Virus record (IMG/VR): IMGVR_UViG_3300010885_043927 | Length of the DNA: 64,000 bases | Direction: 5' to 3' (one strand) | From: an uncultured virus (IMG/VR IMGVR_UViG_3300010885_043927) | Lineage: Duplodnaviria; Heunggongvirae; Uroviricota; Caudoviricetes | In this document: positions 20,393 to 51,502 of the stretch, piece after piece | How positions within the stretch are numbered: position 1 is the first letter of the stretch | Layout: every line of letters starts with the position of its first letter | The notes under the pieces: generated by a model | Told to the model about the DNA's origin: nothing | The model's input: the letters and a program-made list of their open reading frames with translations, nothing else | Databases searched by the model: none | Translations under genes and position numbers: made by a program

Positions 20393-21376
20393 ATGAGTTT
20401 AATCGAAGAACGAGTTGTCTATAAGCCTTTTGAGTATCCTAAGGCATATGATTACTGGTTAAAACAGCAGCAAGCACATTGGCTTCATACTGAAGTGCCG
20501 ATGTCCCAAGATATAACAGATTGGAATTCAAATTTAAAAGATAACGAAAAGAACGTTATAGGAGGAATTTTAAAAGGCTTTGCCCAGACGGAAACTGTAG
20601 TTAATGATTATTGGACTGGGTTAGTAACAAAATGGTTTAGAAAGCCGGAAGTCATTATGATGGCTACTACCTTTGGTTCCTTTGAAACTATTCATGCTGA
20701 AGCATATTCTCTTTTAAACGAACAATTAGGCTTAGATAACTTTGATGAGTTTATGGAAGATGAAGCAACAAAAGCTAAAATACAGTCTTTAATGAATGTT
20801 GCAAGTAGTCATGATGGTAAAAAAGACTGGCATGAAATTGCTAAATCTCTAGCTATCTTTTCAGCATTTACAGAAGGAGTAAACTTATTTTCTTCTTTCG
20901 CTGTTTTACTCTCTTTTAAGATGAGAAATAAACTTAAAGGAGTAGGCCAAATAGTAGAATGGTCAGTAAGAGACGAATCATTACATTCAGAAGCTGGTTG
21001 TTGGTTATTTAGAGAGCTTGTTGGTGAAAATCCTAAACTACTTTCACCTATATTAATAGACGAAATAGAGACTGCTGCTAGACTAGCTATTAAATTGGAA
21101 TTCGATTTTATCGATAAAGTTTTTGAAATGGGCGATTTAGAGAATTTATCTAAGGAAGACTTAAAAAACTTTATTAAACATAGAGTAAATACTAAGATGG
21201 GAGATTTAGGTTTAAAACCTTTAATACCTTCTAGCGAAATAGATAAAGGAGCATTAAAGACTATGAAATGGTTTGATGCTGTTATAGCTGGTAAACAGCA
21301 AACAGACTTTTTTGCGAATAGAGTAACAAATTATTCAAAAGGTCATATGTCGTGGGACTCTTCTGCTGTTTTCTAA
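20393..21376 (+). CDS. nrdB: Ribonucleotide reductase class I beta subunit
   Basis: ETIHAEAY, EGVNLFSSF, RDESLH, DFFANRVTNY. Confidence 0.96.
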   Translation: MSLIEERVVYKPFEYPKAYDYWLKQQQAHWLHTEVPMSQDITDWNSNLKDNEKNVIGGILKGFAQTETVVNDYWTGLVTKWFRKPEVIMMATTFGSFETIHAEAYSLLNEQLGLDNFDEFMEDEATKAKIQSLMNVASSHDGKKDWHEIAKSLAIFSAFTEGVNLFSSFAVLLSFKMRNKLKGVGQIVEWSVRDESLHSEAGCWLFRELVGENPKLLSPILIDEIETAARLAIKLEFDFIDKVFEMGDLENLSKEDLKNFIKHRVNTKMGDLGLKPLIPSSEIDKGALKTMKWFDAVIAGKQQTDFFANRVTNYSKGHMSWDSSAVF

Positions 21377-21509: not shown

Positions 21510-22136
21510 ATGAAAACAGGAATAGTTTACAAATGGACCAATAACCTCAATGGAAAGTGGTATATTGGATCACATAAAGGAACAGCTGGAGACAAGTATA
21601 CCGCTAGCGGTACAGATATTAAGAAAGCATTTAGGGAGCATGGACTCGTTAATTTTGCTAGAGAAATTCTATATGAGGGAATCTATTTTAGGGAAAAGGA
21701 ATCAGAAATATTAACTGAAGTGAAAGCAATGCAGAATCCAGATAGCTATAATAAGAAAAACTTAGCAACAGGATTTGCAATAGGTGAAGAAAATCCTACA
21801 AAAAGAGTAGAAGTACGAGCTAAGATATCAAAAGCACTGAAAGGTAAGACTTGGGAGGAACTATTAGGAGTAAAGGGGGCAGTAGAAAGGAGAGAGAAGC
21901 AGAGTGATTCGCTAAAGGGAACGAAAACAGGAATTAATAATCCTGCAAAAAGATTAGAGGTAAGAGCAGCAATTTCAGCGACACTAAAAGGAAGAAAGCC
22001 ATCTTGGACCGGAAAGCCAAAACCTCCAGAACAATTAGCAAGGCAATTTATTACTAAATACTGTAAAAATTTTTCGGAAACTGAACAGAATAAGATATTT
22101 ACAAAAAAAGTAGAACAGTACAAAAATAAAATTTAA
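21510..22136 (+). mobile_element. Free-standing GIY-YIG homing endonuclease with NUMOD3-like repeats
   Basis: GIVY...WYIGSH; repeated NP.KR.EVRA.IS..LKG. Confidence 0.88.
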
Positions 22137-23851
22137 TGAATACTATACTAGACATATACGGATGGGAAGCTGGAAAAGATTATCCTGAATAGATGAATGA
22201 AATATCTTTAGCCACTATATCAAAAGACTATCTACTTCCACTTGAGACTCCAAAGAAGGCTTATAAGAGAGTATCTGATGCAGTAGCTATGAGATTAGAT
22301 CGTCCGGACCTGGCTGCTAAGTTTTATAAGTATATGTGGAAAGGATGGTTATGTCTAGCCTCTCCAGTACTAGCTAATACAGGTACGGATAGAGGCTTAC
22401 CTATTTCATGTTTTGGTATAGATACACCAGATTCTATAAGAGGTATAGGTTTAACTAACGCTGAGTTAATGAAACTAACCTCAGTTGGTGGTGGGGTAGG
22501 TATTAGTTTATCTAGAATTAGAGGAAGAGGAATTAAAATAGGTAAAGAAGGATTAGGTCAGTCAGAAGGTGTTGTACCTTGGGCTAAGATTTATGATTCT
22601 ACTATTATAGCTACTAATCAAGGAACTGTACGTAGAGGTGCATCATCGGTTAATCTAGATATTAATCACCCAGATATAAAGGAGTTTTTGCAGATTAGGC
22701 GACCTAAAGGAGACCCCAATCGTCAATGTTTAAATTTACACCAATGCGTTGTAGTAGATGATAAATTTATGCTTAAGTTAGAGCATAGAGATCCAGAAGC
22801 TATGGAGTTGTGGATAGAAATTTTAAAAACTAGAATAGAGACAGGTGAGCCTTTCGTAATGTATAAGGATAACGTTAATAAAGTAAATCCTCCTGCTTAT
22901 GTAAAGAATAACCTAGATGTTACTATGACTAACATCTGTACTGAAATTGCTTTACATACCGACGAAGAACATAGCTTTATTTGCTGCTTATCATCTGTTA
23001 ACTTAGCAAAGTATGACGAATGGAAAGATTCTGATTTAATTGAAACTTCTATTTACTTCCTTGATGGAGTATTAGAAGAATTCCTAGCTAAAACTAACGG
23101 TAAAGAATCAATGATTAGAACTCATAGATCAGCTAAGAAAGGACGAGAATTAGGATTAGGAGTCTTAGGATGGCATACATTCTTACAATCTAAAGAAATT
23201 CCTTTCTTATCGATAGCTTCTACCTCTTATACAAATACTATTTTCTCTCAGATAAAATCTCAAGCAGAAGCAGCTTCAAGAAAGTTAGCTAACGAATACG
23301 GAGAGCCTGTTTGGTGTAAAGGTACAGGTATGAGAAACTCGCATCTAATAGCTATCGCACCTACATTATCTAATGCTACAATCTCAGGAGGAGTATCTGC
23401 AGGTATTGAACCTGTAATAGCTAATATTTACACTTTTAATGGACCTAAAGGTACTTTTATCAGACGTAATGATGAATTATCTAAGTACTTAGAGAACAGA
23501 GGGCATAATACTGAAGAGGTATGGGATCAGATTATGAAAGATAGAGGATCTATAGCTAATCTACCTGAAGAGGTTATGCCTGCAGATGATAAAGAAGTTT
23601 TTTTAACCGCAGTAGAAATAAACCAGCTAGGCCTTGTTGAGCAGGCAGCTGTAAGGCAGAGGTATATAGACCAAGCTCAATCACTAAATTTGTTCTTTGA
23701 TCCAACAGATAATCCTAGATTTATTAATTTAGTACATCAAACAGCTTGGAAATTAGGAGTTAAAACGTTATATTATATAAGGACCGATTCGGTTATTAAC
23801 GGTGATATTGGAAGTAGAACTTCTGAAGACTGTTTAAGCTGTGGTGGTTAA
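22136..23851 (+). CDS. nrdA: Ribonucleotide reductase class I alpha subunit, no ATP cone; TAG at 22190
   Basis: PISCF, NICTEI, IAPT, KTLYY and terminal CLSC; in-frame start overlaps the previous stop (TAATG). Confidence 0.95.
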
Positions 23852-23868: not shown

Positions 23869-24315
23869 ATGAGCAAATTTGAGTTATCGGTAAACTACCA
23901 AAAAGGTAGATCAGGAGAAATTAATGTTATAGCAGAAATGACAACAAGAGGCTATGAGATTAAAGACTATACGAACGATTTTGATACTTTCAAGCATAAG
24001 CAGTTGAAAGGATATGATATTGAATATTATAATGCAGTTACCAAGGAATGGGATAGGGCCGATATAAAAACTAATGTGAGAAATGGTTTTACTTTTTTAG
24101 AAGTAGAAAAATCTCCTTCAGGAATGCCAGGATGGTTTTATACCTCCCAGGCTGATAAAATTTTAACTTATGATATTGAAAATAATAAATGCTACGAATA
24201 CTCTCTTAAAGAAATGAGAAATTACGTTCAAGGAAGAGAGCTTAAAAGAGTAGGTAGAAATAAGGATTTATACTGTCTGCCAGTAAAAAGTTCAGTAATT
24301 AGAGAGTTATTCTAA
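23869..24315 (+). CDS. PD-(D/E)XK nuclease-like protein
   Basis: G..GE, GYD, DIKT...FLE...GWF..S.AD pattern. Confidence 0.55.
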   Translation: MSKFELSVNYQKGRSGEINVIAEMTTRGYEIKDYTNDFDTFKHKQLKGYDIEYYNAVTKEWDRADIKTNVRNGFTFLEVEKSPSGMPGWFYTSQADKILTYDIENNKCYEYSLKEMRNYVQGRELKRVGRNKDLYCLPVKSSVIRELF

Positions 24316-24356
24316 TCGGTTACCGGGACTAATCGATCAATAAAATAATACGTCTT
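24315..24356 (+). ncRNA. Putative pseudoknotted leader upstream of queC
   Basis: 8-bp stem ATCGGTTA/TAATCGAT; loop GGGAC can pair with downstream GTCTT. Confidence 0.4.
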
Positions 24357-24376
24357 AATTTTATAAATAAAGTTAT

Positions 24377-25266
24377 ATGTTTAGTACAAAAAAAGCAGTT
24401 TTATCACTCAGCGGAGGGATGGATTCCTCTACTTTATTACTTCATTTATTAGCTAACGGCTATGAAGTTACCGCATTAGGGTTTGATTACGGTCAAAAAC
24501 ACCGTGTTGAATTAGACCGGGCTAAATCTTTAGTAGAATACATTAATACAAATCCTATGAGAATTACTCATACTGACCATGTATTCGGTGGATTTGAAGA
24601 AGCATATCCTATAGTAAAACATCAAATCATTAAATTAGATGGATTACAAAACTTACTACATTCTGCTTTAGTTACAGGAGGTGATGAAGTTCCAAGGACA
24701 TTATGAGCAAGACAACATGAAAGAAACTGTCGTACCTAATCGTAATAAGATTTTCGCTTCTTTAATTCAAGCCGCTGCATTATCTGTAGCAACTAAAGGC
24801 GATAAGCAAGAAGTAGCTATCGCAATGGGTATTCACGCTGGAGATCATGCTATTTACCCTGACTGTCGTCAAGAGTTTCGTGATGCTGATTTTGAGGCAT
24901 TTAAAGTAGGTAATTGGGATTCAATTAGTATACCACTATACTCCGTATCTAGAAGTAAGCAAATTTGAAATTTTAGAAGATGGGTTAGTAGCTTGTGAGA
25001 AATTAGGTTTAAATTTTAATGAGGTATATAAACGTACTAATACATCTTATAAGCCAATTTTTATACAAGATCAACCTACAAGTGAAGGATGGAAGATAGG
25101 TAACTGGTATTCTGATTATAAATCAGCAGCATAAGTAGAACGTATAGAAGCATTTATTCGTTTAGGACGTCCAGATCCGGTGGCATATGCAGATGAAACA
25201 GGACCTGTTAGCTGGGATGTAGCTAGAGCATCAGTAGAGAAAGTACTAGCCGAATATGCGAAGTAA
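24377..25266 (+). CDS. queC: 7-cyano-7-deazaguanine synthase; shifts near 24694 and 24923, TAA at 25132
   Basis: SGGMDS, FDYGQKH, TVVPNRN, YPDCR, ERIEAF. Confidence 0.92.
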
Positions 25267-25270
25267 GTAT

Positions 25271-26056
25271 ATGAGAAGACCTTTAGTATCTCACGAAATT
25301 CCTAAGCAGTTATTCAGTGAGCATGATAAAATTAGTGATTACCCTTATGTATTAGGTCATTTACTTAATAAGGATAAGGAGTATGCAGACTTTTATAAAA
25401 ATAAACTAGCATCATCTTCTTATTCTATTTTAGATAATTCTGCTTTTGAATTAGGTGAGTCTATACCATTAGAAGAATTAGCTGAATTATGTAATGAGTA
25501 TAAACCAACACATTTGGTTTTACCTGATAAGGTTAATGACTATAGAGTTACATTAGATAATGCAAAGGAGTATTTAGCTAAGTATAAAGTTAAAGACCAA
25601 AAGTATATGGGAGTATGCCAAGGAGATACTTTTGACGAAATTTATAGCTGTATGTCCTATTTTCTAAGTGAAGATATAGACATTATAGCTTTACCTTTTG
25701 ACTTAATAGAAAAGTCTGATTATGTTACCGTAAGATTCAGATTTTTACAATGGTGGTATAAGCATAAATTTAAACTGCATGAGGCTATAGCATTAAAAAT
25801 TCATTTACTAGGTACTCTAAACCCAGTTGAATTTGAATTATTTAAAGGGCAGTCCGTAGCTGATTACATCTACTCTATAGATACTAGTTCTCCTATTATT
25901 AACGGATGGGTAGGTAATGAGTTTACAGAACATGGCTTACTAGCACCAAAACCTAGTTTAAAACTTGCAGATAATTTAGATACTAAATTAGAAAAAGAAC
26001 AAATAGAATTAATTTATAAAAACGTAAAAACTTTTAAGAACTATGTCAAGTGGTAA
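25271..26056 (+). CDS. dpdA: TGT-fold guanine transglycosylase-like protein (DpdA family)
   Basis: ILDNSAFE, LVLPD, GVCQG, IHLLG and SIDTS in TGT motif order; sits between queC and queF. Confidence 0.7.
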   Translation: MRRPLVSHEIPKQLFSEHDKISDYPYVLGHLLNKDKEYADFYKNKLASSSYSILDNSAFELGESIPLEELAELCNEYKPTHLVLPDKVNDYRVTLDNAKEYLAKYKVKDQKYMGVCQGDTFDEIYSCMSYFLSEDIDIIALPFDLIEKSDYVTVRFRFLQWWYKHKFKLHEAIALKIHLLGTLNPVEFELFKGQSVADYIYSIDTSSPIINGWVGNEFTEHGLLAPKPSLKLADNLDTKLEKEQIELIYKNVKTFKNYVKW

Positions 26057-26963
26057 TATGAATGAATTTGCTAGTAAGTCTCTAGGTTCAGAGAACTCCT
26101 ATGCAATTTATACTGATAAATTCGATGCATCATTATTAAATCCAATGCCAAGGGCAGCAGCCAGAGGTGATTGGGGTATTACCGGAAATGAGTTTGTAGG
26201 TTATGATGTTTGGCATTGTCATGAAGCTACGTTTTTGTTAAATAATGGCTTACCAGTAGCAGGAACGTTAAAAATTATTTGTCCGGCTAATTCAGAATTT
26301 ATGGTTGAATCAAAAAGCTTTAAATTATATTTAAATTCTTTTGATATGTGTAAGATGGGCTCTACTTTTGAAGAAGCTATAGAGAATTATGAGAATCAAG
26401 TCATACTAGATATAAGCAAATGTATTGGTGCAGACGTCGAGGTGAAGTTTTTTAGTTCTGGAGAAGATAAAATATATGAAAGAGACCCAGGTGAAGGATA
26501 TCGAGATTTATATAAGTCGGTTAGTCTAGCTGAATTACAGAATTTAGTAATAACAGATTATAACTCTCAAGAATCGTATAATATTATTATTGACGATGAT
26601 CCGCTAGGAGAGGTTAACAAATCTTTTACTAATGTTCTTCGTTCTAGATGTAGACATACAAAGCAAAAAGATACAGGTGCTGCTTATTTTAAAATTATAA
26701 CTAAAAGAGGTTCGGTATACGGTAAGGAATTATTAAAATTAGTTATATCTTTAAGAGAAGTAAATGAATTCCATGAATTCTGCTGTGAAAAGTTATACTT
26801 GGAAATAATGAAAAACCCTTTAGTCCATGAATGTTCAGTTATGTTATTATACGCTAGACGTGGTTCATTAGATATTAATCCAGTCAGGGCATCATCTACT
26901 ATGTTAATCTCTTATGCATTAAAAAATGTTGGATTTTATACTAAAAAAGCACAAGGACAATAG
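26043..26963 (+). CDS. queF: PreQ0 reductase, bimodular type
   Basis: VESKSFKLYLNSF, SRCRHTKQKD, FHEFCCE, YARRGSLDINP. Confidence 0.92.
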   Translation: MSSGNMNEFASKSLGSENSYAIYTDKFDASLLNPMPRAAARGDWGITGNEFVGYDVWHCHEATFLLNNGLPVAGTLKIICPANSEFMVESKSFKLYLNSFDMCKMGSTFEEAIENYENQVILDISKCIGADVEVKFFSSGEDKIYERDPGEGYRDLYKSVSLAELQNLVITDYNSQESYNIIIDDDPLGEVNKSFTNVLRSRCRHTKQKDTGAAYFKIITKRGSVYGKELLKLVISLREVNEFHEFCCEKLYLEIMKNPLVHECSVMLLYARRGSLDINPVRASSTMLISYALKNVGFYTKKAQGQ

Positions 26964-26964
26964 A

Positions 26965-27558
26965 ATGAAAGTTTCTAAATGGGCAGTATTTGTATCACAA
27001 ACAGGTTCGGAAGTAGTAGAAGTATGCAATGCATTAAATATAACTCCTGGATATTTGTTAACTAATAACTTTAATAAATTATCTGCTAATTCCTTAAAAT
27101 TTTTCAAGAAAAATAATGTAGAAATAGTTAAACTGCCTTTTAGGCCTACAGAAGAGAGTTATCATAGTGAAATTTTAAATAATTGTAATTTAATAACGTT
27201 ACACGGATATCTCAGAATTTTACCTGCATCTTTTATCAAGAACTTTAAAGGAAGTATCTACAACGGCCATCCTGGTTTAATTAGTTCATATCCGGAATTA
27301 AAAGGTAAAGACCCACAAATTAAGGCATGGTAAGGTAAGTATAGAGAGGTCGGTTCGGTAGTTCATAAAGTAACAGAAGGAGTAGATGAGGGGGATATAG
27401 TAATGCAATGCAGTACTAGTAATATAGCTAGATCCTTAGATAGTATGTATGATATTCTAAAAAGTACATCATTTACTTGTTGGATTACTTTTTTACTTAA
27501 ATCAAAATTACTACCTTTAGGAAAAGAGACCGTAGAAAATTTAGAATTCGAAGTATGA
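26965..27558 (+). CDS. PurN-like formyltransferase (DpdN-like); TAA at 27331
   Basis: SQTGS, LHGYLRIL, NGHPGLI..YP; after the stop, GSVVHKVTEGVDEG. Confidence 0.85.
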
Positions 27559-28063
27559 AAATCTTATTAGGAAGTCATGGTGTAGGTAAGAGTACGTTGT
27601 TAAAAGCTGTTAGTGAAAAATTTGCTAACTATTATGTAACAGACGGGTTTTCTAGACCTGTATTTAAGATAGCTAAGCAGTTAGACTTCTCTGATTACGA
27701 AAAGCAATTAGTAATCAATGAGTTATCGACTTGGGCTTATAAAATTACCTTTCCCATAAGTACGTGATCTCGACTAGAAGTATTGTAGACTGTATTTTGT
27801 ATACCCAAATTATTAATCCTACGATGGATACATCGGAGATGGTTAAGTTGTTTGACCAAACACAGGAACAGGTAGAACATTTTTTTTATATTCCTATTGA
27901 ATTCGGATTTGTTTACGACCCGGATAGACTTAACGAGGAGTTACAAAATAAAGTAGACGCTGTTATAGTAAGCTTTATGGAAAAACATATACCGACTGAA
28001 AAAATTATTAAAGTAACAGGGTCAGTTGAGGAGAGATTAGATATAATAAGTAAATACCTTTAA
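27555..28063 (+). CDS. P-loop nucleotide kinase-like protein; 1-nt deletion near 27741
   Basis: GSHGVGKST, RSIVDCILY, TGSVEERL. Confidence 0.75.
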
Positions 28064-28072
28064 TTTAAAATT

Positions 28073-28537
28073 ATGGCAAAGTTTATTTCAACAAAGCTGT
28101 TTGACGGATACAGTACTATTTTCCGTCAGTGGAGAGCCGAAGGCACTCATTGTAAATTTATACATGGATATGGTATATCTTTTCGTTTATGGTTTGAAGG
28201 AGATTTAGATGAGCGAAATTGGGTATGGGATTTTGGCGGCATGAAAAGAGCTAAAGGTACTATAGATGGTAAGAATCCTAAAGAGTGGATGGACTATATG
28301 TTTGACCATACTTGTTTAGTAGCAGAAGACGATCCAGGTATAAATGGGTACAAAACTATGGACGGTCTAGGAGTAATACAGTTAAGACTACTCCCGGATG
28401 TAGGTGCAGAGAAATTCGCTGAGTTTATTTATAGCAAGGTTAATCCTTTTGTTATAGAAGAGACCTCAGGAAGAGTCCAAGTTACAAAAGTAGAATTCTT
28501 TGAAAACGATAGAAATTCAGCAATATACATTCCTTAA
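28073..28537 (+). CDS. queD: 6-carboxytetrahydropterin synthase
   Basis: HCKFIHGY, WVWDFG, FDHT, GAE. Confidence 0.9.
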   Translation: MAKFISTKLFDGYSTIFRQWRAEGTHCKFIHGYGISFRLWFEGDLDERNWVWDFGGMKRAKGTIDGKNPKEWMDYMFDHTCLVAEDDPGINGYKTMDGLGVIQLRLLPDVGAEKFAEFIYSKVNPFVIEETSGRVQVTKVEFFENDRNSAIYIP

Positions 28538-28541
28538 TTCG

Positions 28542-28730
28542 ATGAAAAAATTACCTTTCCTAGCTTATGTTATTTTAATTCTTGCCTCAACATTTATTCC
28601 TTATGTTATTATTTCCTTTATAAATTGGGATTTAAATATAGCTAATTGGTCTATTTGGTGGAGAGTTCTTTTAGCTATTTGGGCTTTAGCCATTACCAAC
28701 TCAGTCTACAAAAAAATTAACAACGAATAA
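28542..28730 (+). CDS. Small two-TM membrane protein
   Basis: MKKLPFLAYVILIL...; two hydrophobic segments. Confidence 0.6.
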   Translation: MKKLPFLAYVILILASTFIPYVIISFINWDLNIANWSIWWRVLLAIWALAITNSVYKKINNE

Positions 28731-28731
28731 T

Positions 28732-29586
28732 ATGTCTACTATAGATCCTAACAAATTATTAATAAGTTCTGACTTCTACTCAGTACAGGGCGAAGGAAAA
28801 TCTACAGGAGTACCTTCTTACTTTATCCGTTTAGGTTTGTGTAACTTGACTTGTGGTATGTCTACTAGATTTTTAAAGAACTTAATTAACGGCAAAGAAC
28901 TTGCCGATGGTGAAATCTTTAAAGGAGATTTAGAATTAGAAGGTAAAGCAACATGGACTTGTGATAGTACTTCACAATGGGCATGGAGAGGGGAAAATAA
29001 AGACTTCCAATACTTAATAGATACTTGGAAAGAGCAAGGTATCTACGATGATATTTTAAATGGAACTATCCATTTAATTTGGACAGGTGGAGAACCCGCA
29101 ATGAAAAAACATCAAGAAGCTATTATAAACTTTATTGACTACTGGGCAAAGTACGAATCCTATAGTAATGGTTTATTAAAAGTAGATTTTCTTGTTTATA
29201 ATGAAATTGAAACTAACGGTACTGTAGAATTTTCACCGGATATGTTCGTACGGCTAACTCAAATTAATTGCTCTCCTAAATTAGAGAACTCAGGTATGAC
29301 TGTAAAGCAGCGTATTAAGCCAGAAGTTATAGAGCAGATAATGAAGCATCAAAACTATCAATTTAAGTTTGTTATCTCTAATGAAGAAGATGTTAAAGAA
29401 GTATTCCGCGATTTCGTTGAGCCATTTAACATTCCTTTAAAGAATGTAGTTTGTATGCCAGGTCTAGACAGTCAGGATGATTTTCATGAGCGTACTCAAT
29501 TTGTATTGGAAATGGCTAAGAAATATAAATTTACAGGCTTGACTCGTTTGCACATTTCAGCTTGGGATCGCATACTTAATGTATAA
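28732..29586 (+). CDS. queE: 7-carboxy-7-deazaguanine synthase (radical SAM)
   Basis: FYSVQGEG, CNLTC...CDS, TGGEP, IETNGT, SPKL, RLH. Confidence 0.92.
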   Translation: MSTIDPNKLLISSDFYSVQGEGKSTGVPSYFIRLGLCNLTCGMSTRFLKNLINGKELADGEIFKGDLELEGKATWTCDSTSQWAWRGENKDFQYLIDTWKEQGIYDDILNGTIHLIWTGGEPAMKKHQEAIINFIDYWAKYESYSNGLLKVDFLVYNEIETNGTVEFSPDMFVRLTQINCSPKLENSGMTVKQRIKPEVIEQIMKHQNYQFKFVISNEEDVKEVFRDFVEPFNIPLKNVVCMPGLDSQDDFHERTQFVLEMAKKYKFTGLTRLHISAWDRILNV

Positions 29587-30008
29587 TGGAAACACCAGAT
29601 AAAATTCACCTGTCATGGTCGGGAGTAGAGGAGTACATATATGCTATCGAAAAATGGGTATTGTTAAATAAAAATTTGAAGTATGTTACAGGTCCTGCTA
29701 GAGGTGGATTAATACCGGCAGTACTCCTATAACATAAGCTTGGTATAGAATTTTTATCTGTAGAAGATGCTATAATGTTAAAGGAAGACATTAGGGCTAA
29801 GACATTGCTTATTGATGACATATGCGATTCTGGTCAAACTTTTGTAGATTTTCATTACTGTGGATTTACTACTGCAAGCCTACTTTGGAGAACTAATTCT
29901 AAATATATTCCAGAATATTATGCAGAGTCAATTGATTCTAATGCATGGATAGTTTTCCCTTGGGAAAATAAAGATTCAGAAACTATACAAGATTATTTAA
30001 AAAAGTAA
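29586..30008 (+). CDS. Purine-type phosphoribosyltransferase; TAA at 29730
   Basis: ARGGLIPAV, LLIDDICDSGQT PRPP loop, WIVFPWE. Confidence 0.88.
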
Positions 30009-30029
30009 TAACTTTACTTTCGGTTATGT

Positions 30030-30060
30030 AGTGTCGTAGCACCACTTAAAAACAAACACA
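30030..30060 (+). ncRNA. PreQ1-I riboswitch-like aptamer
   Basis: AGTG-TCGTAGCAC-CACT-TAAAAACAAACACA, ending 1 nt before the folE ATG. Confidence 0.55.
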
Positions 30061-30061
30061 A

Positions 30062-30772
30062 ATGTCAAAAAAATTTATTGAAGGAACTGAACTAGTTCAA
30101 GCAGGATTCGCTAATGGTATATCAACGCAATTGGCAGCCAAACAAGCAATTAACGGCCCTGAAGCTCGTTTAACTGATTTAGATAAGCAAATAATTATCG
30201 AAGATGCTGCTGAAGCGTTCGGTTGGTTCTTATCTGCTTTAGGATGTGATTGGGAAAACGATCCAAACTCATCCGAAACTCCTCATCGAGTAGCTAAAGC
30301 CTACGTTAATCATTTATGGGCTGGTCGTTATGAACCTTTAGATAAAGTTACTGCATTCCCTAGCGATGGATATACAGGAATCGTTTTTGAGGGCGGTATT
30401 CCACTGGTTTCTATGTGTAGTCATCATCACGGCTTAATAAAAGGTAAAGTACATATAGCATATATTGCTTCTGAAAACGGTAGGGTAGTAGGCTTATCAA
30501 AGCTTAATAGAATCGTTGAGAACTTTGGGAGACGAGGCGCTATCCAAGAGCAGTTAACAGTAGCTATTCACAATGCAGTAAATAAAATCTGCGAAGGGAA
30601 TCAAGGTGTAGCCGTTTTGATCGAAGCGACTCATGCATGTGTTTCCTGCAGGGGTGTCAAACATCACGGAGCATCCATGAAAACAGCAAAACTATCAGGA
30701 TGCTTCTTAGATGAAGATTCAGCAAGAGCAGAATTCTATGAGTTTACGAGAAGTTATAAAATTTCTGAGTAG
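30062..30772 (+). CDS. folE: GTP cyclohydrolase I
   Basis: ETPHRVAK, SMCSHH, GLSKLNR, IQEQLT, HACVSCRG. Confidence 0.96.
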   Translation: MSKKFIEGTELVQAGFANGISTQLAAKQAINGPEARLTDLDKQIIIEDAAEAFGWFLSALGCDWENDPNSSETPHRVAKAYVNHLWAGRYEPLDKVTAFPSDGYTGIVFEGGIPLVSMCSHHHGLIKGKVHIAYIASENGRVVGLSKLNRIVENFGRRGAIQEQLTVAIHNAVNKICEGNQGVAVLIEATHACVSCRGVKHHGASMKTAKLSGCFLDEDSARAEFYEFTRSYKISE

Positions 30773-30816
30773 GTTTTCGTTTTGTGTGTTAACACCACTA
30801 TTTATATAGAAAGAAA

Positions 30817-31461
30817 GTGATGGTAACATGCAATATATGTAAAGTTAAATTTAAGAAAGTTACTAATACTCATTTAAGGGATAAACACGGGTTAGAGTTG
30901 GCTGAATATTTAAGGCTGTTTCCAAACGCAAAAATGACTTCTAGAGAAACAGTAGAAGCAATTTCAAAATTTAGCAAAGGTAAATCCTATATCGAAAGGT
31001 ATGGAGAAGAGAAAGCAATAAAGTTAATTGAAACTAGAAAACTTACCGCGTATAAACAGTTCGAAAATGTAGAACAGAGAGTACTAAGGAGATCGAAAAT
31101 TTGGAAAGGTTATAAAGACATATCAGGTGATATGTGGCGAGTTATTCAAAACGGAGCTAAAAGTAGGAATTTAGAATTTTCAGTTAAAATAGAAGAGATC
31201 TGGGAATTATTTGAAAAACAAAGAGGAATATGTGCATTGTCAGGTTTCGATATAGTTTTGGACGTATCTTTAGGTAGTTTAAATAAAAACGGATATCAAA
31301 AAAATACGGCGTCTTTAGATAGGATAGACAGTACTAAAGGTTACATTACTGGTAACGTACAATGGGTTCATAAGGATATTAATAAATTAAAGTCTAATTG
31401 GACTGAAGAGTATTTCTTAGAAATGTGTTCATCTGTTGCGCTTTATAAAACTAAAAATTAA
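30817..31461 (+). mobile_element. HNH-type homing endonuclease
   Basis: N-terminal CxxC/H finger; CALSG and SLDRIDS.KGY..GNVQWV...N..K. Confidence 0.8.
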
Positions 31462-31465
31462 GCAA

Positions 31466-32011
31466 ATGTTAAACGCCGAACAAATAATAGAAAAAGGTAT
31501 ACTTAAGTTAGAGGATAGCAAAGGTAAACCAGCACAAGTAGGTTACGACTTATCAGTTAAGTCGATTAATGCTATAGGTAATGTCAATTGGAATATTTCT
31601 GACCCGAGACATTACATTTCTAATCAACCGCAGATAGGTTTTATTTTTAAAGATAAGACTGAGTTGAATGTATACAGACCTGTTGAGACCAAGAAGATAG
31701 AAGGTAAAGAAGGTTATTTACTTTACGAAGGAGTGTATGATATTACGTTTTGGGAAGGGTGCAAAATACCTTCTAATCTAGCAGGTTTTATTCGTCAAAG
31801 ATCTTCTTTATTAAGGAATGGAGCTGTAATGCATAGTTCTGTTTTTGACCCTGGTTTCGAAACATCGAACATGGGATGTATTCTCACAGTTAACTGTACG
31901 CTATTTATAGAGTGTGATGCTAGAGTTGCTCAAATTTACTTTCACCATTGCGATGAAGTAGCTGTAGAGAATCTTTACAACGGACAATTTCAATACGATA
32001 GACAGAGATAA
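31466..32011 (+). CDS. dCTP deaminase / trimeric dUTPase family protein
   Basis: GYDL, RSSL.RNG, DPGFE, RVAQI, YNGQFQ. Confidence 0.85.
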   Translation: MLNAEQIIEKGILKLEDSKGKPAQVGYDLSVKSINAIGNVNWNISDPRHYISNQPQIGFIFKDKTELNVYRPVETKKIEGKEGYLLYEGVYDITFWEGCKIPSNLAGFIRQRSSLLRNGAVMHSSVFDPGFETSNMGCILTVNCTLFIECDARVAQIYFHHCDEVAVENLYNGQFQYDRQR

Positions 32012-32013
32012 TA

Positions 32014-32337
32014 ATGAACGATTTTGATTCTACTAAACCTTCTACTGGCTTTGGAGATTCTATAGCAAAAGTAACTAACTTTCTAGGAATAGATAGATTA
32101 GCTGATGCTGTAGCTAAGTTAGCAGGAGCTGAAGGTTGTGGATGTAAGGAACGTAGGGAGTATCTAAACGAGTTATTTCCATACGAAGAAACTACTCGTC
32201 AAGTAAGATTTTTAAAAGATGCCATTATAGAAGGAGTGCAGTATAGAGTAGGTAACACAGTTTTAGTTAAAAAAGGAACATCGTTACATCCTAGGTTAAT
32301 ACTACTTGCTAAAGATGGTATTTTAGAAGAAGTGTAG
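32014..32337 (+). CDS. Hypothetical protein
   Basis: GFGD.IAKVT...GCGCKERRE.LN. Confidence 0.7.
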   Translation: MNDFDSTKPSTGFGDSIAKVTNFLGIDRLADAVAKLAGAEGCGCKERREYLNELFPYEETTRQVRFLKDAIIEGVQYRVGNTVLVKKGTSLHPRLILLAKDGILEEV

Positions 32338-32368
32338 TTGTTTTTTTAAATATTTCAATCTATATTTA
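32338..32368 (+). promoter_or_regulatory. Bacteroidota sigma-A-like promoter
   Basis: TTG-N20-TATATTTA; unusually close to the ATG. Confidence 0.35.
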
Positions 32369-32371
32369 GAC

Positions 32372-34687
32372 ATGATAGAGAAGAAGTATTATACCGTTAC
32401 TGATAGAGCTACTCTTGAACTTTTAGTTCAGCATATAAAAGAGAGTGAGTATATCGCATACGATACCGAGACCAATAGTCTTAATGTCCGTAAAGGAAAG
32501 ATTATTGGTTTCTCTGTGTCTGGTGATGAAGGTATAGGTTTCTATATGCCTACTATGGTATGGGATAGAAACAAGGAAGAGTTAGTTGAGTGTGAAATAG
32601 ATGGTCACGGCTGTCATGCATTAGCTAAGAAAACCTTAAGTTTACTTCACGGTAAGAAGTTAATTATGCATAATGCTTCTTTTGACGGTCGTTTTACTAA
32701 AAACTTCTACGGTGAAGATTTAATTCCTTCCTTACATGCAGATACGGCTTTATTAGTTCATACGGTAAAGGAAGAAGGAGCTTTTGGTTTTGGTGGTAAA
32801 CCTTTTGGTCTCAAGGAAATTGCTATTATGGTACAGAGAGAGATAGGTTTAGATATTGAGACTAAAGCTAACGAAGAGCAGTTAATACTAAAAGAGAATA
32901 TTAAACGTAACGGTGGGTCTATTACTAAGACTAATTACGAAATCTATAAAGCAGACTTACATATATTATCAGAATATGCTGCAGCTGATACAGACTTAAC
33001 TTTAAGAATATTTAATCACTTCTCTAAAGTATTAATAGAAGAGAATTTAGTAGATTTCTTTTACGTAGATGAGGTAATGCCTATCTACAAAGAAGTAACT
33101 ATACCAATGGAGGAGTTTGGAGTAAAGGTAGACCTAGATTTATTGCAGAAAACTAAAATAGATATAGAGGCAGATTTATTAAAGCATAGTAAGTTAGTTG
33201 CAGAAGAATTATTAAAAATTGACGATGTAAGAGCTTGGGTTATCCAGACCGCTGTTGCGAGTTATCCTTGCAATAACAAAGGTACTTACGCTCAAAAACT
33301 ATGTGACTTAGAAGGCATTGACCTACCTAAATCAGATAAATCTAATAAGTATGTTTTAAATAAAGCTTCATTACTAACTTTACCAGAATCTGCTATAAAG
33401 GATTTTTTAATATCTGGTGATGAGAAATTCTTACCTCAAAACACTAGATTAAAAGTTAGCTTAGAGTTATGGAAAGAGGAGAATGAAGGTAAGTTTTTTA
33501 ATATTCAATCTAAAGACCAATTAGGCAAAATAGCTTTTGATGTTCTTGGGGTAACACCATTATCAACAACAACAAAAGGAAAAGCTCAATTCGATGATGA
33601 TATGATTGAATCGATATCTAAAGACCATCCTTGGGCTGAGAATTTACGTATATATAATAAGCTTCTTAAAGTAAAGTCAACTTACGTAGATAGGTTTTTC
33701 GACAGACACGAAGATGGTAGGTACTACTTTTACTTTAAGCAAAACGGAACTGTATCAGGAAGGTATGGTTCTGATATGCAACAGTTACCTAAACCTAAAG
33801 AGGATGGAGAAGCTGCACCTATAATAGTTCATTATAATAATGTAGTAAGGGCATTCTTAATAGCAGAAGAAGGTCGAATACTTATCGATTGTGACTACGA
33901 ATCTTTAGAACCTCACTGCTTTGCTTCGGTAACTGGTGATGAAAATCTAAGAGAGATCTTTAATAAGAACCATGATTTTTATTCTACTGTAGCTATTCGT
34001 ACTGAAAAACTAGAAGGAGTTAGTGCTGATAAGAAAGCAGATAACTTTTTAAAGAAAGTAGACCCGGTTAAACGTAATAAAGCTAAAGCTTACTCATTAG
34101 GTATTGCATACGGTATGGAATCGTTTGCTCTGAGTAAGACGTTAGAGATCAGTCAAAAAGAAGCAGACGTACTTGTACAAGGTTATTTAGATGGATTCCC
34201 AGACTTAAAACGTTGGAGAGAAGAGTCTAGAAAGTTTGTTAAAGAGCATGGTTATATTAGTAATAAGGTAGGACGTATTCGTCATTTACCTTCTGTTAAA
34301 AAAATTCACGACTTAATGGGTGATGCTATTTTAGATTGGAGAGCTAGAAAAGATTTAGAAGACCAATATGGAAGAGAGCAAGTAACTAATGTTTACAGAG
34401 ATTATCGTAACGGATTAAACAACTGTTTAAATTACCAATTACAGAGTTTAGCTGCCGCCGTAGTTAACCGAGCTGCTGTAGCTATTAATAGAGAGTTAAT
34501 AAAGAGAGGTATAGATGGACGTGTACAGGCTCAAGTGCATGACCAGTTAGTAGTAAACGTACCTGAAGAGTACGCACATGAAGTAGCCGAATTCGTTCAA
34601 GACTTAATGGAAAACACTACTAAGCTAGAAGGGGTAACATTAAAAGCACCTCCTGCAATTGCGAAAAATTTTAGAGATGGGCACTAG
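32372..34687 (+). CDS. polA: Family A DNA polymerase with 3'-5' exonuclease
   Basis: DTET, HNASFD, YAAAD; DYESLE, RNKAKAYSLGIAYG, QVHD. Confidence 0.96.
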   Translation: MIEKKYYTVTDRATLELLVQHIKESEYIAYDTETNSLNVRKGKIIGFSVSGDEGIGFYMPTMVWDRNKEELVECEIDGHGCHALAKKTLSLLHGKKLIMHNASFDGRFTKNFYGEDLIPSLHADTALLVHTVKEEGAFGFGGKPFGLKEIAIMVQREIGLDIETKANEEQLILKENIKRNGGSITKTNYEIYKADLHILSEYAAADTDLTLRIFNHFSKVLIEENLVDFFYVDEVMPIYKEVTIPMEEFGVKVDLDLLQKTKIDIEADLLKHSKLVAEELLKIDDVRAWVIQTAVASYPCNNKGTYAQKLCDLEGIDLPKSDKSNKYVLNKASLLTLPESAIKDFLISGDEKFLPQNTRLKVSLELWKEENEGKFFNIQSKDQLGKIAFDVLGVTPLSTTTKGKAQFDDDMIESISKDHPWAENLRIYNKLLKVKSTYVDRFFDRHEDGRYYFYFKQNGTVSGRYGSDMQQLPKPKEDGEAAPIIVHYNNVVRAFLIAEEGRILIDCDYESLEPHCFASVTGDENLREIFNKNHDFYSTVAIRTEKLEGVSADKKADNFLKKVDPVKRNKAKAYSLGIAYGMESFALSKTLEISQKEADVLVQGYLDGFPDLKRWREESRKFVKEHGYISNKVGRIRHLPSVKKIHDLMGDAILDWRARKDLEDQYGREQVTNVYRDYRNGLNNCLNYQLQSLAAAVVNRAAVAINRELIKRGIDGRVQAQVHDQLVVNVPEEYAHEVAEFVQDLMENTTKLEGVTLKAPPAIAKNFRDGH

Positions 34688-34928: not shown

Positions 34929-35234
34929 ATGTCAGAACAAGTAGTTTCGTCAATTACCCCATTGAACGGTAATGTTATTTTAAAACCTGTTGAAGAGTCG
35001 GAAATGACTTACGGGAATATCGTTTTACCTGATATGGGTAAAGAGAGACCTGAAATGGGAGTAGTAGTATCGTCCAGCCCTTCATATAACTGGAATTTAG
35101 GAGAAAGCGTAGCTTCTATTTTAATACCTGGAGATAAGGTACTAATACCGAAAATGGCAGCTATGAAAGTAAGCGTAGAAGGAGAAGATTATATTATCAT
35201 TAAAGAATCAGAAATTTTAGGAGTTATAAAATAA
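34929..35234 (+). CDS. groES: Co-chaperonin GroES
   Basis: PLNGNVILK, GNIVLPD, GDKVL, ESEILGVI. Confidence 0.92.
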   Translation: MSEQVVSSITPLNGNVILKPVEESEMTYGNIVLPDMGKERPEMGVVVSSSPSYNWNLGESVASILIPGDKVLIPKMAAMKVSVEGEDYIIIKESEILGVIK

Positions 35235-35238
35235 AAAT

Positions 35239-36880
35239 ATGTCAACAATATCATTATCAGGAACCGAATTAAAATCAAAGCTTTTATCGGGTATTCAAAA
35301 ATTAAATCACTCAGTTAGTTCAACATTAGGACCTTCAGGTAGAACTGTTCTTATAGATGATTCAACTTCAGGTATACGTGTAACTAAAGACGGTGTATCA
35401 GTTGCAAAGGCTTTTGCTAAATTAGAAGATGAAATCGAGAACATAGGAGCTCAGTTAGTAAAGCAAGTAGCTATTAAATCGGCTAATGAAGCTGGTGACG
35501 GTACAACAACATCTACGTTACTGACAACAGTAATGGTACAAGAGGGTTTAAAACTTATTACTCAAGGAACTAATCCGGTAGAAATTAAAAAAGGTATAGA
35601 CAAGTATGTAAAGCTTGTTGTAGCTGAGTTAAAGAAAGCTTCATTAAGTATAGATTCTGAAGATCAAATACGTCAAGTAGCTGTAATCTCAGGTAACAAC
35701 GATGAAGAAATAGGAGACTTAATATCTTCTGCATTAGATGCTGTAGGACGTGATGGGTTAGTTTCGTTAGAAGAATCTAAATCTGGAGAAACTCAATTAG
35801 AGATTGTAGAGGGTATGCAATTCGATAAAGGATATAAATCTCCTTATTTTGTTACAAATAACAATACTATGCAAGCGGTTTTAGAAGATGCGTATATTTT
35901 TATGTACGATGGTAACATTTCTACTGCTGCGGAGCTTCTACAAGTTCTTACTAAAGCAAATGCCGAGAATAAAGCGCTTCTTCTCGTTGCTCATGATTTC
36001 GGTGACGAAGCATTAGCTGTTCTTATTGTTAATAAAATGCGAGGCATTGCTAAAGTAGTAGCTGTTAAAGCACCTGATTTTGGTGAAAGACGTACTCTAC
36101 TTTTAGAAGATATGGCTGTCTTGACAGGAGGACAAGTTCTTTCAAAAGAAAAAGGTATTAAGTTAGATAAACTACCAGCTAATCAATTAGATCAGTTTTT
36201 AGGTAAAGCCAGAACAGTTACGGTAGATAAAGAGTCAACAACTATAGTAGACGGCCATGGGGAAGAAGAAGATATTAAAGTACGAGCTGAAGAAATTAAA
36301 GAGCAGATAGATAAAGCTACTTCTAATTTCGAAAAAGAAAAGCTTCAAGAACGTTTAGGAAAGTTAATTGGAGGTGTTGCTGTCATTTCTGTAGGAGGTA
36401 ATAGTGAGATCGAAATTAAAGAAAAGAAAGACCGAGTAGAAGATGCATTGTTTGCAACTAAAGCAGCTTTAGCAGAAGGAACTGTCGAGGGTGGAGGAAT
36501 AGCATTAATCAAAGCATTTAATATCATTGAGGAGAACACGAAAGACGTAGTCTCATTTGAAGATACTCTTGCTAAAGCAATTATAAAATCTGCTTGCTAT
36601 GCACCATTCCAGAAAATATTAAAATTCTGGTGAAGATAATCCATATAAGTTTTTGTATGAGGTTCTTACTTCAACAGAAAAAAATGCTACTTTAAATGTT
36701 AAAACAAGATTAGTAGTTGATGCAAGAGAAGCAGGAATTATCGATCCAGTAAAGGTAACACGGTTAGCTTTAGAAAATGCCTCTTCCGTAGCAGGTACGA
36801 TCCTTACAACGGAATCTGTAATCTTTGAGAAAAAAGATGAAAAAGAGGAGGAAAATTCTAATATGCAGGTAGGTTACTAG
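35239..36880 (+). CDS. groEL: Chaperonin GroEL; shift near 36621
   Basis: [25 protein letters not shown]-terminal [16 protein letters not shown] in the next frame. Confidence 0.95.
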
Positions 36881-38616: not shown

Positions 38617-39033
38617 ATGGAGAATAAAATAAAACTGTACCTAGACGATATTAGAACACCTTTAGATAAAGAATGGGAAGTTGTAAGAACCTTCGAAGAA
38701 TTAGTTAAACATATTCAGCAAGTAGGTTTAGAAAACTACGATGTAATATCTTTAGATCACGACTTAGGAGACTCAGCTATTCAAGAGTACATTTTAAATG
38801 GATCGCCTAACTATACCTTAGATTATAATAATATCTTGGAAAAAACAGGAATGGACTGTGCTAGGTTTTTAGTAGCAGAAAGTATGTCCACAAGTATTCC
38901 ATTACCTCAAATTTACATACATTCAGCTAACCCTATTGGTTCTGCTAATATGATGGGTTATGTTAACAATTATTTAAAAAATCAAAAATTACCGCAGACC
39001 TGTATTCGGGTAAGAATAAAGCTTTCTATGTAG
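38617..39033 (+). CDS. Receiver-like domain protein (cyclic-phosphate-processing type)
   Basis: LYLDDIRTP, ISLDHDLG, TGMD, HSANPIG. Confidence 0.7.
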   Translation: MENKIKLYLDDIRTPLDKEWEVVRTFEELVKHIQQVGLENYDVISLDHDLGDSAIQEYILNGSPNYTLDYNNILEKTGMDCARFLVAESMSTSIPLPQIYIHSANPIGSANMMGYVNNYLKNQKLPQTCIRVRIKLSM

Positions 39034-49778: not shown

Positions 49779-49779
49779 A

Positions 49780-51060: not shown

Positions 51061-51061
51061 A

Positions 51062-51502
51062 ATGTCTGATGAATTAATTACCTGCCCACTATGTGGTTCT
51101 GATGCATGTTACTCTACTCCATTAAATGAAACTAAAAACAGTTATAGTTGCTTTGGATGTGGTTTTATTGGAAATGATTTTATTGTAGAAGGAGAATACG
51201 ATGTAGAGCAATATGAAGCAGAGCTTCCTCTTCTTTACAAGGATTTAAAAAAAGTAGACAGTAAAGGAAGAGTATGGTATCCTAACGCAATTAATATTTC
51301 TGATAAAGGAACTGTATTTGCCAGCGGTAGAACAGCAGATAATTGGGGTTGGACTGCAATAAAAGTTCGTCCTTTAACTGATGAAGAAAAAGAACAACTA
51401 TCTAATAAGGATATTGATCATAAATCAGACAGCACAACATTAAAGAATTTTGGTAAAGACTTTATAGAGTCGTTAGATTATTTAGGTTATTTTGATTTAT
51501 AG
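51062..51502 (+). CDS. Zinc-finger hypothetical protein
   Basis: CPLCG...CFGCG. Confidence 0.7.
   Translation: MSDELITCPLCGSDACYSTPLNETKNSYSCFGCGFIGNDFIVEGEYDVEQYEAELPLLYKDLKKVDSKGRVWYPNAINISDKGTVFASGRTADNWGWTAIKVRPLTDEEKEQLSNKDIDHKSDSTTLKNFGKDFIESLDYLGYFDL

Follow-up and report, generated by a model that had tools for sequence, protein, structure and literature searches.

A phosphoribosyltransferase and a P-loop kinase in a DpdA3-type deazaguanine cluster of an uncultured phage: candidates for guanine recycling or for a pre-replicative route to modified DNA

When a phage replaces the guanine of its genome by a 7-deazaguanine, is the base exchanged on replicated DNA, or is a modified nucleotide prepared in advance for the polymerase? 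The question is raised by the deazaguanine cluster of an uncultured tailed phage of freshwater (Caudoviricetes; IMG/VR record IMGVR_UViG_3300010885_043927), of which one strand of 64,000 nucleotides, hereafter referred to as the window, was analyzed. The genes are aligned on the plus strand in the order QueC-DpdA3-QueF-DpdN-kinase-QueD-QueE-PRTase-FolE-dUTPase-like-PolA, with the ribonucleotide reductase (RNR) genes upstream of the cluster (Table 1). In the original prediction from this DNA, a P-loop kinase and a purine-type phosphoribosyltransferase (PRTase) were described as interleaved with the que genes and translationally coupled to them, and were proposed to take part in a pre-replicative synthesis of modified dGTP. 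Both genes are present as described, the stop codon of DpdN overlapping the start codon of the kinase (ATGA, 27555-27558) and that of QueE overlapping the start codon of the PRTase (TAATG, 29584-29588), and the RNR genes just upstream and the dUTPase/dCTP deaminase (DCD)-like and PolA genes downstream are located as claimed. The extent given for the locus, 27555..34687, leaves out the upstream half of the cluster, QueC, DpdA3, QueF and DpdN (24377-27558).

The cluster is a member of the known immuto/DpdA3 kind. Our tentative preference, held at somewhat less than an even chance, is that it makes 7-(formylamino)methyl-7-deazaguanine (fdPreQ1), that guanine is replaced by exchange at the DNA level, and that the PRTase recycles the guanine. 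The base would be synthesized from GTP through FolE, QueD, QueE and QueC to preQ0, which would be converted by QueF into preQ1 and by DpdN into formyl-preQ1. As the published model has it, DpdA3 would then swap guanine for the deazaguanine in the already replicated DNA, each exchange releasing one guanine. The PRTase would most likely recycle this 6-oxopurine: guanine and phosphoribosyl pyrophosphate (PRPP) would give GMP and then GTP for FolE, encoded beside the PRTase, and synthesis and exchange would thus form a closed loop. The kinase may be an accessory enzyme of the preQ1 branch, a small-molecule kinase with the fold of the ribosylnicotinamide kinase (RNK) domain of NadR and of thymidylate kinase (TMPK). 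What the genes are, how they are conserved and how they are linked is established below, and from this we infer the substrate of each enzyme, the site of exchange (DNA or nucleotide) and the recycling loop. As the window copies of several genes are broken only in this record (see the last section), the intact proteins of L004, an IMG/VR contig of 95-97% identity to the window, were used for all later protein analysis.

The phosphoribosyltransferase family and its genomic setting

The PRTase contains the PRPP-loop motif LLIDDICDSGQT and is, as judged from its sequence, a 6-oxopurine PRTase of the xanthine-guanine PRTase (XGPRT) or archaeal GPT type. Among solved purine PRTases it matched the Pyrococcus enzyme 1VDM (E 1e-11), Sulfolobus GpT (E 4e-8, with GpT-2 and GpT-1 both matching) and E. 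coli XGPRT (E 3e-4), and its hood motif, WIVFPWE, recurs unchanged in the Pyrococcus enzyme; the score against Pfam PF00156 was 19.2 bits, under the cut-off of 26.3. The family consists of proteins of 130-140 amino acids, with 538 matches at E <= 1e-5, and relatives were detected in at least 496 viral stretches of IMG/VR. In an alignment of 32 sequences, relatives chosen from protein databases without regard to genomic context, 19 residues are invariant, including those of RGG, DDIxDxGxT and WxxxPWE. Since PRTase loci occur both with and without QueC and QueF, this invariance suggests one common substrate.

The surroundings were surveyed with local hidden Markov models in the best 80 PRTase loci, many of which are ended by contig ends (counts by tblastn were similar). 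QueE was detected in 65 of them, FolE in 63, QueD in 52, a MazG/PRA-PH-like gene in 50, and QueC and DpdA3 in 43 each. When the count was restricted to the 27 loci flanked by 8 kb or more on each side, the numbers were QueE 27, FolE 23, QueD 22, DpdA3 22, QueC 21, and 21 for either a MazG-like or a dUTPase-like gene. The start of the PRTase gene lies less than 1 kb from FolE in 53 of 62 loci, and a family B polymerase adjoins most of these clusters. The MazG-like and dUTPase-like genes never occurred together in the 80 loci, the dUTPase-like gene occupying in the window the slot of the MazG/PRA-PH-like gene; a representative of the MazG-like proteins gave no meaningful match among solved structures.

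A search of 50,697 phage records gave 27 with the PRTase, namely Campylobacter CP220-like phages (14), the Cellulophaga phiST group (5), immuto (4), Brevundimonas phages (2) and others (2). Complete replacement of G by a 7-deazaguanine is reported for three lineages (PMC10516641, Table 1), and 23 of the 27 records fall within these. A QueC homologue is carried by 242 records, mostly of Mycobacterium, Vibrio, Escherichia, Rhizobium and Pseudomonas phages, and the PRTase was not found among the phages of these five hosts in the same set of records. Three inspected clusters of the DpdA1/2 type contain no annotated PRTase, kinase or MazG. The co-occurrence test suggested with the original prediction thus gave a positive answer: the PRTase family is a signature of DpdA3-type clusters and, among isolates, is nearly confined to complete-replacement lineages, a linkage that is solid and far beyond chance.

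The PRTase is nevertheless facultative. It was present in 14 of the 25 DpdA3-anchored loci with full flanks and absent within 10 kb in the other 11, and one complete 163-kb genome with terminal repeats carries DpdA3, QueF, DpdN and the kinase with the PRTase nowhere, a pattern expected of an accessory salvage gene.

The transglycosylase and the kinase

The AlphaFold model of DpdA3 (pLDDT 92.9) gave as best Foldseek match the bacterial DpdA 7UI4 (E 7e-7), followed by tRNA-guanine transglycosylases (TGTs). The invariant residues are D60, D91 and D209, together with Q122 and H183-x-L185-G186. In DpdA and TGT, three Asp are invariant (Asp95, Asp130 and Asp256 in DpdA; PMC10164549), and D60, D91 and D209 fit these in number and spacing. 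DpdA3 thus resembles the bacterial DpdA/DpdB preQ0 insertase in the TIM-barrel TGT fold, the three invariant Asp and the predicted exchange of guanine for deazaguanine (PMC10164549). It differs in its size, 266 amino acids against 413 residues in the 7UI4 chain, in the lack of a conserved Cys, and in its partner: no DpdB-like ParB-family ATPase is present here, the adjacent P-loop protein having a small-molecule kinase fold. A low isoelectric point of DpdA3 (median 5.8) was considered as a sign against DNA binding and was rejected as not discriminating, the DpdAs of phages in reportedly DNA-modifying lineages having values of 6.0-8.0.

A DpdA-like gene is near-universal in these clusters. In a search for PRTase clusters devoid of DpdA, five long contigs gave no match to the A2 profile or PF01702 (positive control 5/5). 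Absence of DpdA is not claimed for them, because the contigs are 41-85% complete and because two, L045 and L080, contain an unannotated neighbour with QG, HxxG and SxDS motifs (hhalign probability <2%). In these distant PRTase clusters (L045:7828-12614 and L080:6953-12461), the motif-bearing neighbour of 294-338 amino acids may represent a further divergent DpdA subfamily. The PRTase of L045 is flanked by a GATase-QueC fusion and a dCMP-deaminase-family gene.

Two subfamilies of the kinase, of about 25% mutual identity, share R34, R75, D79, E116, D122 and R125 as invariant residues. Against PF13521 (AAA_28), the L004 copy scored E 2e-5 and 25.3 bits (cut-off 27) over positions 3-164 of 164, and the immuto kinase 50.6 bits, above the cut-off; PF13521 is precomputed on most homologues. 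The L004 kinase gave no match to PF02223 or PF21448 at E <= 1, while the immuto kinase matched PF02223 at E 0.004, under the cut-off, and phrog_2107, 'thymidylate kinase', matched the window kinase fragments at E 4e-6 and 2.5e-4. With the AlphaFold model (pLDDT 83), an exhaustive VIA search placed NadR RNK first, with Z 15.1 for 8X7F (rmsd 2.9 over 161 residues) and 13.3 for 6GYE, followed by TMPKs (Z 12.6-12.7) and deoxyguanosine kinase (12.1); ranking by Foldseek E-value puts thymidylate kinases first instead. When the family profile was compared with solved chains, only the alignment to NadR RNK spanned most of the protein. From the Z ranking and this sole near-full-length alignment, the kinase appears to be a small-molecule kinase of the TMPK/deoxynucleoside kinase (dNK)/RNK fold, with more likeness to a nucleoside kinase such as NadR RNK than to a nucleoside monophosphate (NMP) kinase. 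The Walker A motif and the P..E...DDG.R block are common to NadR RNK and the phage kinase. The latter differs in being a standalone protein of 169 amino acids without the nicotinamide mononucleotide (NMN) adenylyltransferase domain, embedded among DpdA3/DpdN and QueF; the sequence similarity to NadR is marginal (E 0.03), and the Z scores of the TMPK and dNK folds fall short by only 2-3 units.

The distribution of the kinase follows QueF, not the PRTase. Of the 80 PRTase loci, it was detected only in the 7 that also carry QueF and DpdN. It was present in every one of the 25 full-flank DpdA3-anchored loci, among which QueF types are over-represented. Three loci (L121, L124 and L150) carry DpdA3, kinase and QueF without DpdN, an arrangement that predicts unformylated preQ1, and at least seven shorter loci (L131, L137, L140, L146, L152, L158 and L169) carry DpdA3, DpdN and QueF without the kinase; kinase and formyltransferase therefore appear to be independent modules.

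Kinases of a second, unrelated family, the deoxynucleoside monophosphate kinases (DNMK), also recur beside the PRTase. Brevundimonas phage MaInes has the order QueE, unknown, DpdA3, polymerase, unknown, RNR-beta, RNR-alpha, DNMK, FolE and PRTase, with the DNMK matching PF21448 at E 1e-11 and DpdA3 identified by hhalign at 95.5%. In phiST, gp065 (L087:9425-10033), annotated as 'hypothetical protein' just 3' of the PRTase, has a P-loop and matches DNMK (T4 gp1-type) at E 3e-5, under the cut-off; the order there is PRTase, DNMK-like, an unknown gene and the RNR large subunit. For the proposed action of the kinase on modified NMPs, the recurrence of nucleotide kinases by the PRTase is a point in favour; this particular kinase, however, is nearer to a nucleoside kinase and tracks QueF.

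Guanine replacement on DNA or at the nucleotide level

The nearest relative, immuto (PolA 62.6% identity), replaces all G by fdPreQ1 (PMC10516641, Table 1) and has the same gene set, FolE, QueD, QueE, QueC, QueF, DpdA3, DpdN, PRTase, AAA_28 kinase, PolA and GroES/EL being common to both. Identities of other proteins range from 78% (FolE) and 69% (QueD) to 42.5% (DpdN), 36.5% (PRTase) and 32% (DpdA3). The order is rearranged, the window having QueC-DpdA3-QueF-DpdN-kinase before QueD-QueE-PRTase-FolE; immuto has a MazG/PRA-PH-like gene in place of the dUTPase/DCD-like gene, and two homing endonucleases are inserted here. Of the two phages, it is immuto in which the DNA chemistry was measured (PMC10516641).

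The complete replacement in a relative with both PRTase and kinase is in agreement with exchange on DNA combined with guanine recycling. We read the PRTase as a salvage enzyme because the motifs of its pocket are shared with cellular XGPRT-type enzymes and do not vary between clusters with differing end products, because FolE, a GTP consumer, is adjacent, and because the PRTase is dispensable in one complete genome while the DpdA-like gene is near-universal. The PRTase also sits in complete-replacement lineages (23 of 27 records), where guanine release would be largest. Several points weigh against this reading. The kinase has no role in a pure DNA-level model, yet it was found in all the full-flank DpdA3 loci and is translationally coupled to DpdN, and the unrelated DNMK-type kinases of phiST and MaInes lie by the PRTase and beside RNR. 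In 47 of 49 loci, the gene of an NTP pyrophosphatase (the MazG-like gene) lies less than 2 kb downstream of the PRTase. We know of no earlier case in which base exchange after replication led to complete replacement. The test of DpdA3 for DNA modification in E. coli failed, and 7-amido-7-deazaguanine (ADG) nucleoside was found in the cytoplasm of CP220-infected cells (PMC10516641). A deazaguanine-specific PRTase does exist: TubE was experimentally shown to be a PRPP transferase specific for 7-carboxy-7-deazaguanine (CDG), encoded in a FolE/QueD/QueE cluster (PMC6112128).

The sequence fits about equally well a replacement of G that is complete before replication, to which we give the same guarded credence. 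DpdA3, small and without Zn in this reading, would then be a deoxynucleotide or deoxynucleoside transglycosylase, or the PRTase would be TubE-like, the kinase and the phage polymerase acting next; the dUTPase-/MazG-like enzyme would deplete dGTP, and the PRTase would send freed guanine back to FolE. In the first version, possible but doubtful, the dUTPase-/MazG-like enzyme would convert dGTP to dGMP, DpdA3 would swap the base on dGMP or deoxyguanosine, the kinase would phosphorylate the modified cationic deoxynucleoside or deoxynucleotide for use by PolA, and the PRTase would return guanine through GMP and GTP to FolE. All the conserved parts would thereby receive a role, including the near-universal DpdA3 and the optional PRTase. 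An NTP pyrophosphatase is present in 21 of the 27 full-flank PRTase loci and 20 of the 25 full-flank DpdA3 loci, the kinase is nearest to NadR RNK, a kinase of cationic nucleosides, and occurs only where QueF makes the cationic preQ1, and DNMK-type dNMP kinases are present in phiST and MaInes. The short DpdA3 without conserved Cys, the 100% replacement, the cytoplasmic ADG nucleoside and the failed DNA test (PMC10516641) fit this version as well, and the clusters adjoin DNA polymerase and RNR. The arrangement is reminiscent of T4 hydroxymethylcytosine (hmC) and of the S-2L Z-genome in its combination of an NTP pyrophosphatase, a nucleotide kinase, RNR and an own polymerase beside the modification genes, complete replacement being found in relatives of the window phage. 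The S-2L set consists of PurZ, MazZ and DatZ (PMC8342488). The window differs in that its kinase is NadR-RNK-like, not gp1-like, the gp1-like DNMK being found in phiST and MaInes, and in that both the enzyme for the modified dNMP and the dGTPase are candidates here. In the T4 pathway, the corresponding enzymes are dCTPase, dCMP hydroxymethylase and the dNMP kinase gp1. We know of no TGT-family enzyme that acts on a mononucleotide. The pyrophosphatases may be plain dUTPases, as indicated by the match to 9w59 and by the HHpred call of the phiST gene as dUTPase (PMC10516641), and the kinase could equally well be a true nicotinamide-riboside (NR) kinase.

The second version, the main model of the original prediction, is rather improbable in our view: the PRTase would join CDG, preQ1 or formyl-preQ1 to PRPP, like TubE or ToyH, the kinase, RNR and PolA would follow, and DpdA3 would merely patch residual G. 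The tubercidin and toyocamycin clusters offer the precedent, a purine-type PRTase amid FolE, QueD and QueE genes (PMC6112128), and the phage PRTase is likewise embedded in que genes and coupled to QueE. The phiST gene order parallels the order of reactions, RNR, DNMK, FolE and PRTase are consecutive in MaInes, and DpdN belongs to the PurN family, the substrate of which is a ribonucleotide (PMC10516641). The likeness to TubE is one of cluster context: TubE has 194 amino acids and serves Streptomyces secondary metabolism, against 140 amino acids and an XGPRT/archaeal-GPT-like sequence for the phage enzyme, and those clusters contain no DpdA-like transglycosylase, whereas the phage clusters have one (bioRxiv 10.64898/2026.04.15.718813), which would here be nearly idle. 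The complete genome with DpdA3, QueF, DpdN and kinase but no PRTase and the 11 DpdA3 loci without one also argue against this version, as do the PRTase residues invariant across differing end products, which leave only a common substrate such as CDG, and the kinase, which tracks QueF, occurs in few PRTase loci and resembles a nucleoside rather than an NMP kinase. Generic auxiliary metabolism is in our estimate just as improbable as this TubE-like route. The PRTase would serve general purine salvage, the kinase would be an NR kinase feeding the NADPH-dependent QueF, and the pyrophosphatase would be an ordinary dUTPase. NadR RNK is the best structural match of the kinase and its sole near-full alignment, with AAA_28 as Pfam family. 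QueF, which alone uses NADPH, is found together with the kinase, and the dUTPase-like protein has a dUTPase as its best match. In large phages, the genes for RNR and polymerase often lie together with those for nucleotide metabolism. On the other side, the PRTase is nearly confined to deazaguanine clusters (QueE in 27 of 27 full-flank loci, besides its bias to full-replacement lineages), an NR kinase alone is insufficient for NAD synthesis, and at least seven loci have DpdN and QueF without the kinase.

The hypothesis of a pre-replicative route is thus reasonable, and the linkage of PRTase and kinase that it stressed holds, but the data fit guanine salvage at least as well. As a new idea it was partly anticipated in print: a modified-dGTP route was proposed in 2019 for Campylobacter phages (cited in PMC6884629), and was dropped in 2023 solely on the finding of the distant TGT homologue DpdA3, then not validated (PMC10516641). 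The bacterial Dpd system modifies <0.1% of G, against 100% in the DpdA3 phages (PMC10516641). For the dI-containing Fletcherviruses, synthesis of dITP has been assumed (PMC13091555). The statement that the published model includes neither kinase nor PRTase is correct for the 2023 paper: the main text of PMC10516641 contains no 'kinase', 'phosphoribosyltransferase' or 'PRPP', and in one supplement 'phosphoribosyl' occurs only as an HHpred match to PRA-PH. No later paper deciding between the pre- and post-replicative routes was found in literature searches, most subscription journals being outside their coverage.

In hundreds of uncultured phages, DpdA3 clusters are accompanied by the XGPRT-type PRTase, the NTP pyrophosphatase and nucleotide or nucleoside kinases of two unrelated families, a conserved association not mentioned in PMC10516641. 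The pre- versus post-replicative question is thereby reduced to a few enzyme activities and nucleotide pools in immuto, a cultivable relative. A nucleotide-level route, if true, would extend both the known ways of making a non-canonical dNTP and the known activities of the TGT fold; otherwise, the guanine-recycling loop would explain how a phage affords genome-wide base exchange.

Breaks in the record and the gene map

Between 13.8 and 40 kb, the window is damaged by seven in-frame stops (14305, 14740, 19029, 22190, 25132, 27331 and 29730) and about six small deletions (near 18772, 24694, 24923, 27741, 36621 and ~39950), which break the kinase, PRTase, DpdN, QueC, DnaB, RNR-alpha, a PolA-like gene and GroEL. 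A 1-nt deletion after 27740 splits the kinase into two open reading frames (ORFs) in different frames, 27555-27767, which contains the Walker A motif (GSHGVGKS), and 27764-28063. The PRTase contains an in-frame TAA at 29730-29732, which is TCA in L004 and in the contigs of sequencing runs, and DpdN a TAA at 27331, which is GAA in both. QueC has 2-nt deletions after 24693 and after 24922 in addition to the TAA at 25132, RNR-alpha a TAG at 22190 (TGG in L004), and GroEL is split by a 2-nt deletion. In L004 all these genes are intact. Logan contigs from four runs, X1 to X4, were examined over 24300-30100; X1-X3 are freshwater runs and may include the source sample. All four give the open-frame reading at each break in this region: 25133 A>C, 27331 T>G, 29731 A>C, two additional nucleotides after 24693 and after 24922, and one after 27740. 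X1-X3 differ from the window over the whole region by only 4-5 letters and 5 gap letters, all at the breaks except for one missense difference (26914 A>C), while X4, a more distant relative, has identical readings at the breaks.

Since the genes are intact in L004 and the run contigs read through, the breaks are specific to the record and not biological. A reading of the PRTase and kinase genes of this phage as pseudogenes undergoing decay, as the in-frame TAA and the frameshift might suggest, is accordingly extremely improbable: DnaB, RNR-alpha, QueC and GroEL are broken alike in the same record, and for the population sampled the idea is refuted by L004 and the four runs. Stop-codon recoding or a suppressor tRNA was ruled out, as breaks shift the frame, most genes end with TAA and the only tRNA is that for Met.

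Within 24300-30100, G or C is involved in 7 of 7 events at a regional GC content of 32.7%, which for the five single-base events alone corresponds by simple arithmetic to a chance of about 0.004. Compared with L004, five of six stops are changes of G:C to T:A and one is G to A. Breaks of the window are nearly all at G or C, and past 40 kb, about 9 kb of coding sequence that could be compared showed none. If the record stems from native-DNA long reads, such G-restricted miscalls could be the footprint of modified G.

The window itself represents a large tailed phage of 30-38% GC, with tail sheath and baseplate genes, a replication module, RNR, the deazaguanine cluster, PolA, GroES/EL and a sugar-transferase block. 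Features from RNR to PolA, mapped by Pfam, PHROG and NCBIfam scans and by tblastn with immuto proteins, are collected in Table 1; a megablast search of the cluster against phage records gave no match.

Table 1. Features of the window from the RNR genes to the DNA polymerase gene
Feature	Position	Strand	Evidence
RNR small subunit (RNR beta)	20393..21376	+	PF00268 E 2e-65; 82% identity to immuto homologue
GIY-YIG/NUMOD3 endonuclease	21510..22136		between RNR subunit genes
RNR large subunit (RNR alpha)	22148..23851 (ORF called from 22193)	+	PF02867 E 2e-100; 81% identity to immuto NrdA
Protein without assigned function	23869..24315		
QueC, 7-cyano-7-deazaguanine synthase	24377..25266	+	PF06508/TIGR00364 on fragments; 297 amino acids intact in L004
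DpdA3-type TGT-like transglycosylase, 266 amino acids	25256..26056	+	32-33% identity to immuto DpdA and CP220 homologue
QueF, preQ0 reductase, bimodular type	26043..26963	+	PF14819 E 4e-26; TIGR03138 E 9e-51 (under curated cut-off); 39% identity to immuto QueF
DpdN-like PurN-family formyltransferase	26965..27558	+	42.5% identity to immuto DpdN across stop
P-loop nucleoside/nucleotide kinase, AAA_28/NadR-RNK-like, 169 amino acids intact	27555..28063	+	
QueD, 6-carboxytetrahydropterin synthase	28073..28537	+	PF01242 E 1e-12; phrog_2389 E 8e-36; 69% identity to immuto QueD
Protein without assigned function	28500..28730		
QueE, radical-SAM 7-carboxy-7-deazaguanine synthase	28732..29586	+	phrog_2076 E 2e-39; QueE NCBIfam models E 8e-12 and weaker
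XGPRT-type purine PRTase, 140 amino acids intact	29586..30008	+	
FolE, GTP cyclohydrolase I	30062..30772	+	PF01227 E 9e-43; 78% identity to immuto FolE
HNH homing-endonuclease-like insertion, outside pathway	30817..31461	+	phrog_3322, phrog_3118
dUTPase/dCTP-deaminase-family NTP pyrophosphatase (predicted)	31436..32011	+	PF22769 E 6e-11; PRK02253 E 6e-24, under cut-off
Conserved 107-amino-acid protein	32014..32337	+	no Pfam match
Family A DNA polymerase with 3'-5' exonuclease (PolA)	32372..34687	+	PF00476 E 7e-62, PF01612; 62.6% identity to immuto PolA

The intact DpdN of L004 (197 amino acids) matches PF00551 at E 2e-14 and PurN structures, with N-x-H and D conserved. For the dUTPase-like protein, the best solved match is PDB 9w59, 'probable dUTPase' (E 2.5e-10). 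The family of the 107-amino-acid protein occurs in seven loci (the window, L011, L013, L014, L027, L031 and L062), beside the PRTase or the dUTPase-like gene; for this protein and a protein of 148 amino acids, both of no assigned function, the ESM Atlas matches were viral hypotheticals only.

Both endonucleases, GIY-YIG/NUMOD3 and HNH, are absent from the otherwise closely similar L004, which suggests recent homing-endonuclease insertions. Downstream of PolA, a phage GroES and GroEL pair is located at 34929-36880, and GroES/GroEL families accompany many PRTase loci. A protein of 138 amino acids at 38617-39033 contains a cREC_REC (cyclic-phosphate processing receiver) domain (E 6e-23). The long block at 48327-59668, which may act on a virion protein or on DNA, includes glycosyltransferases, an RmlD/epimerase-like gene and C-methyltransferases, and is shared with immuto genes 90-102.

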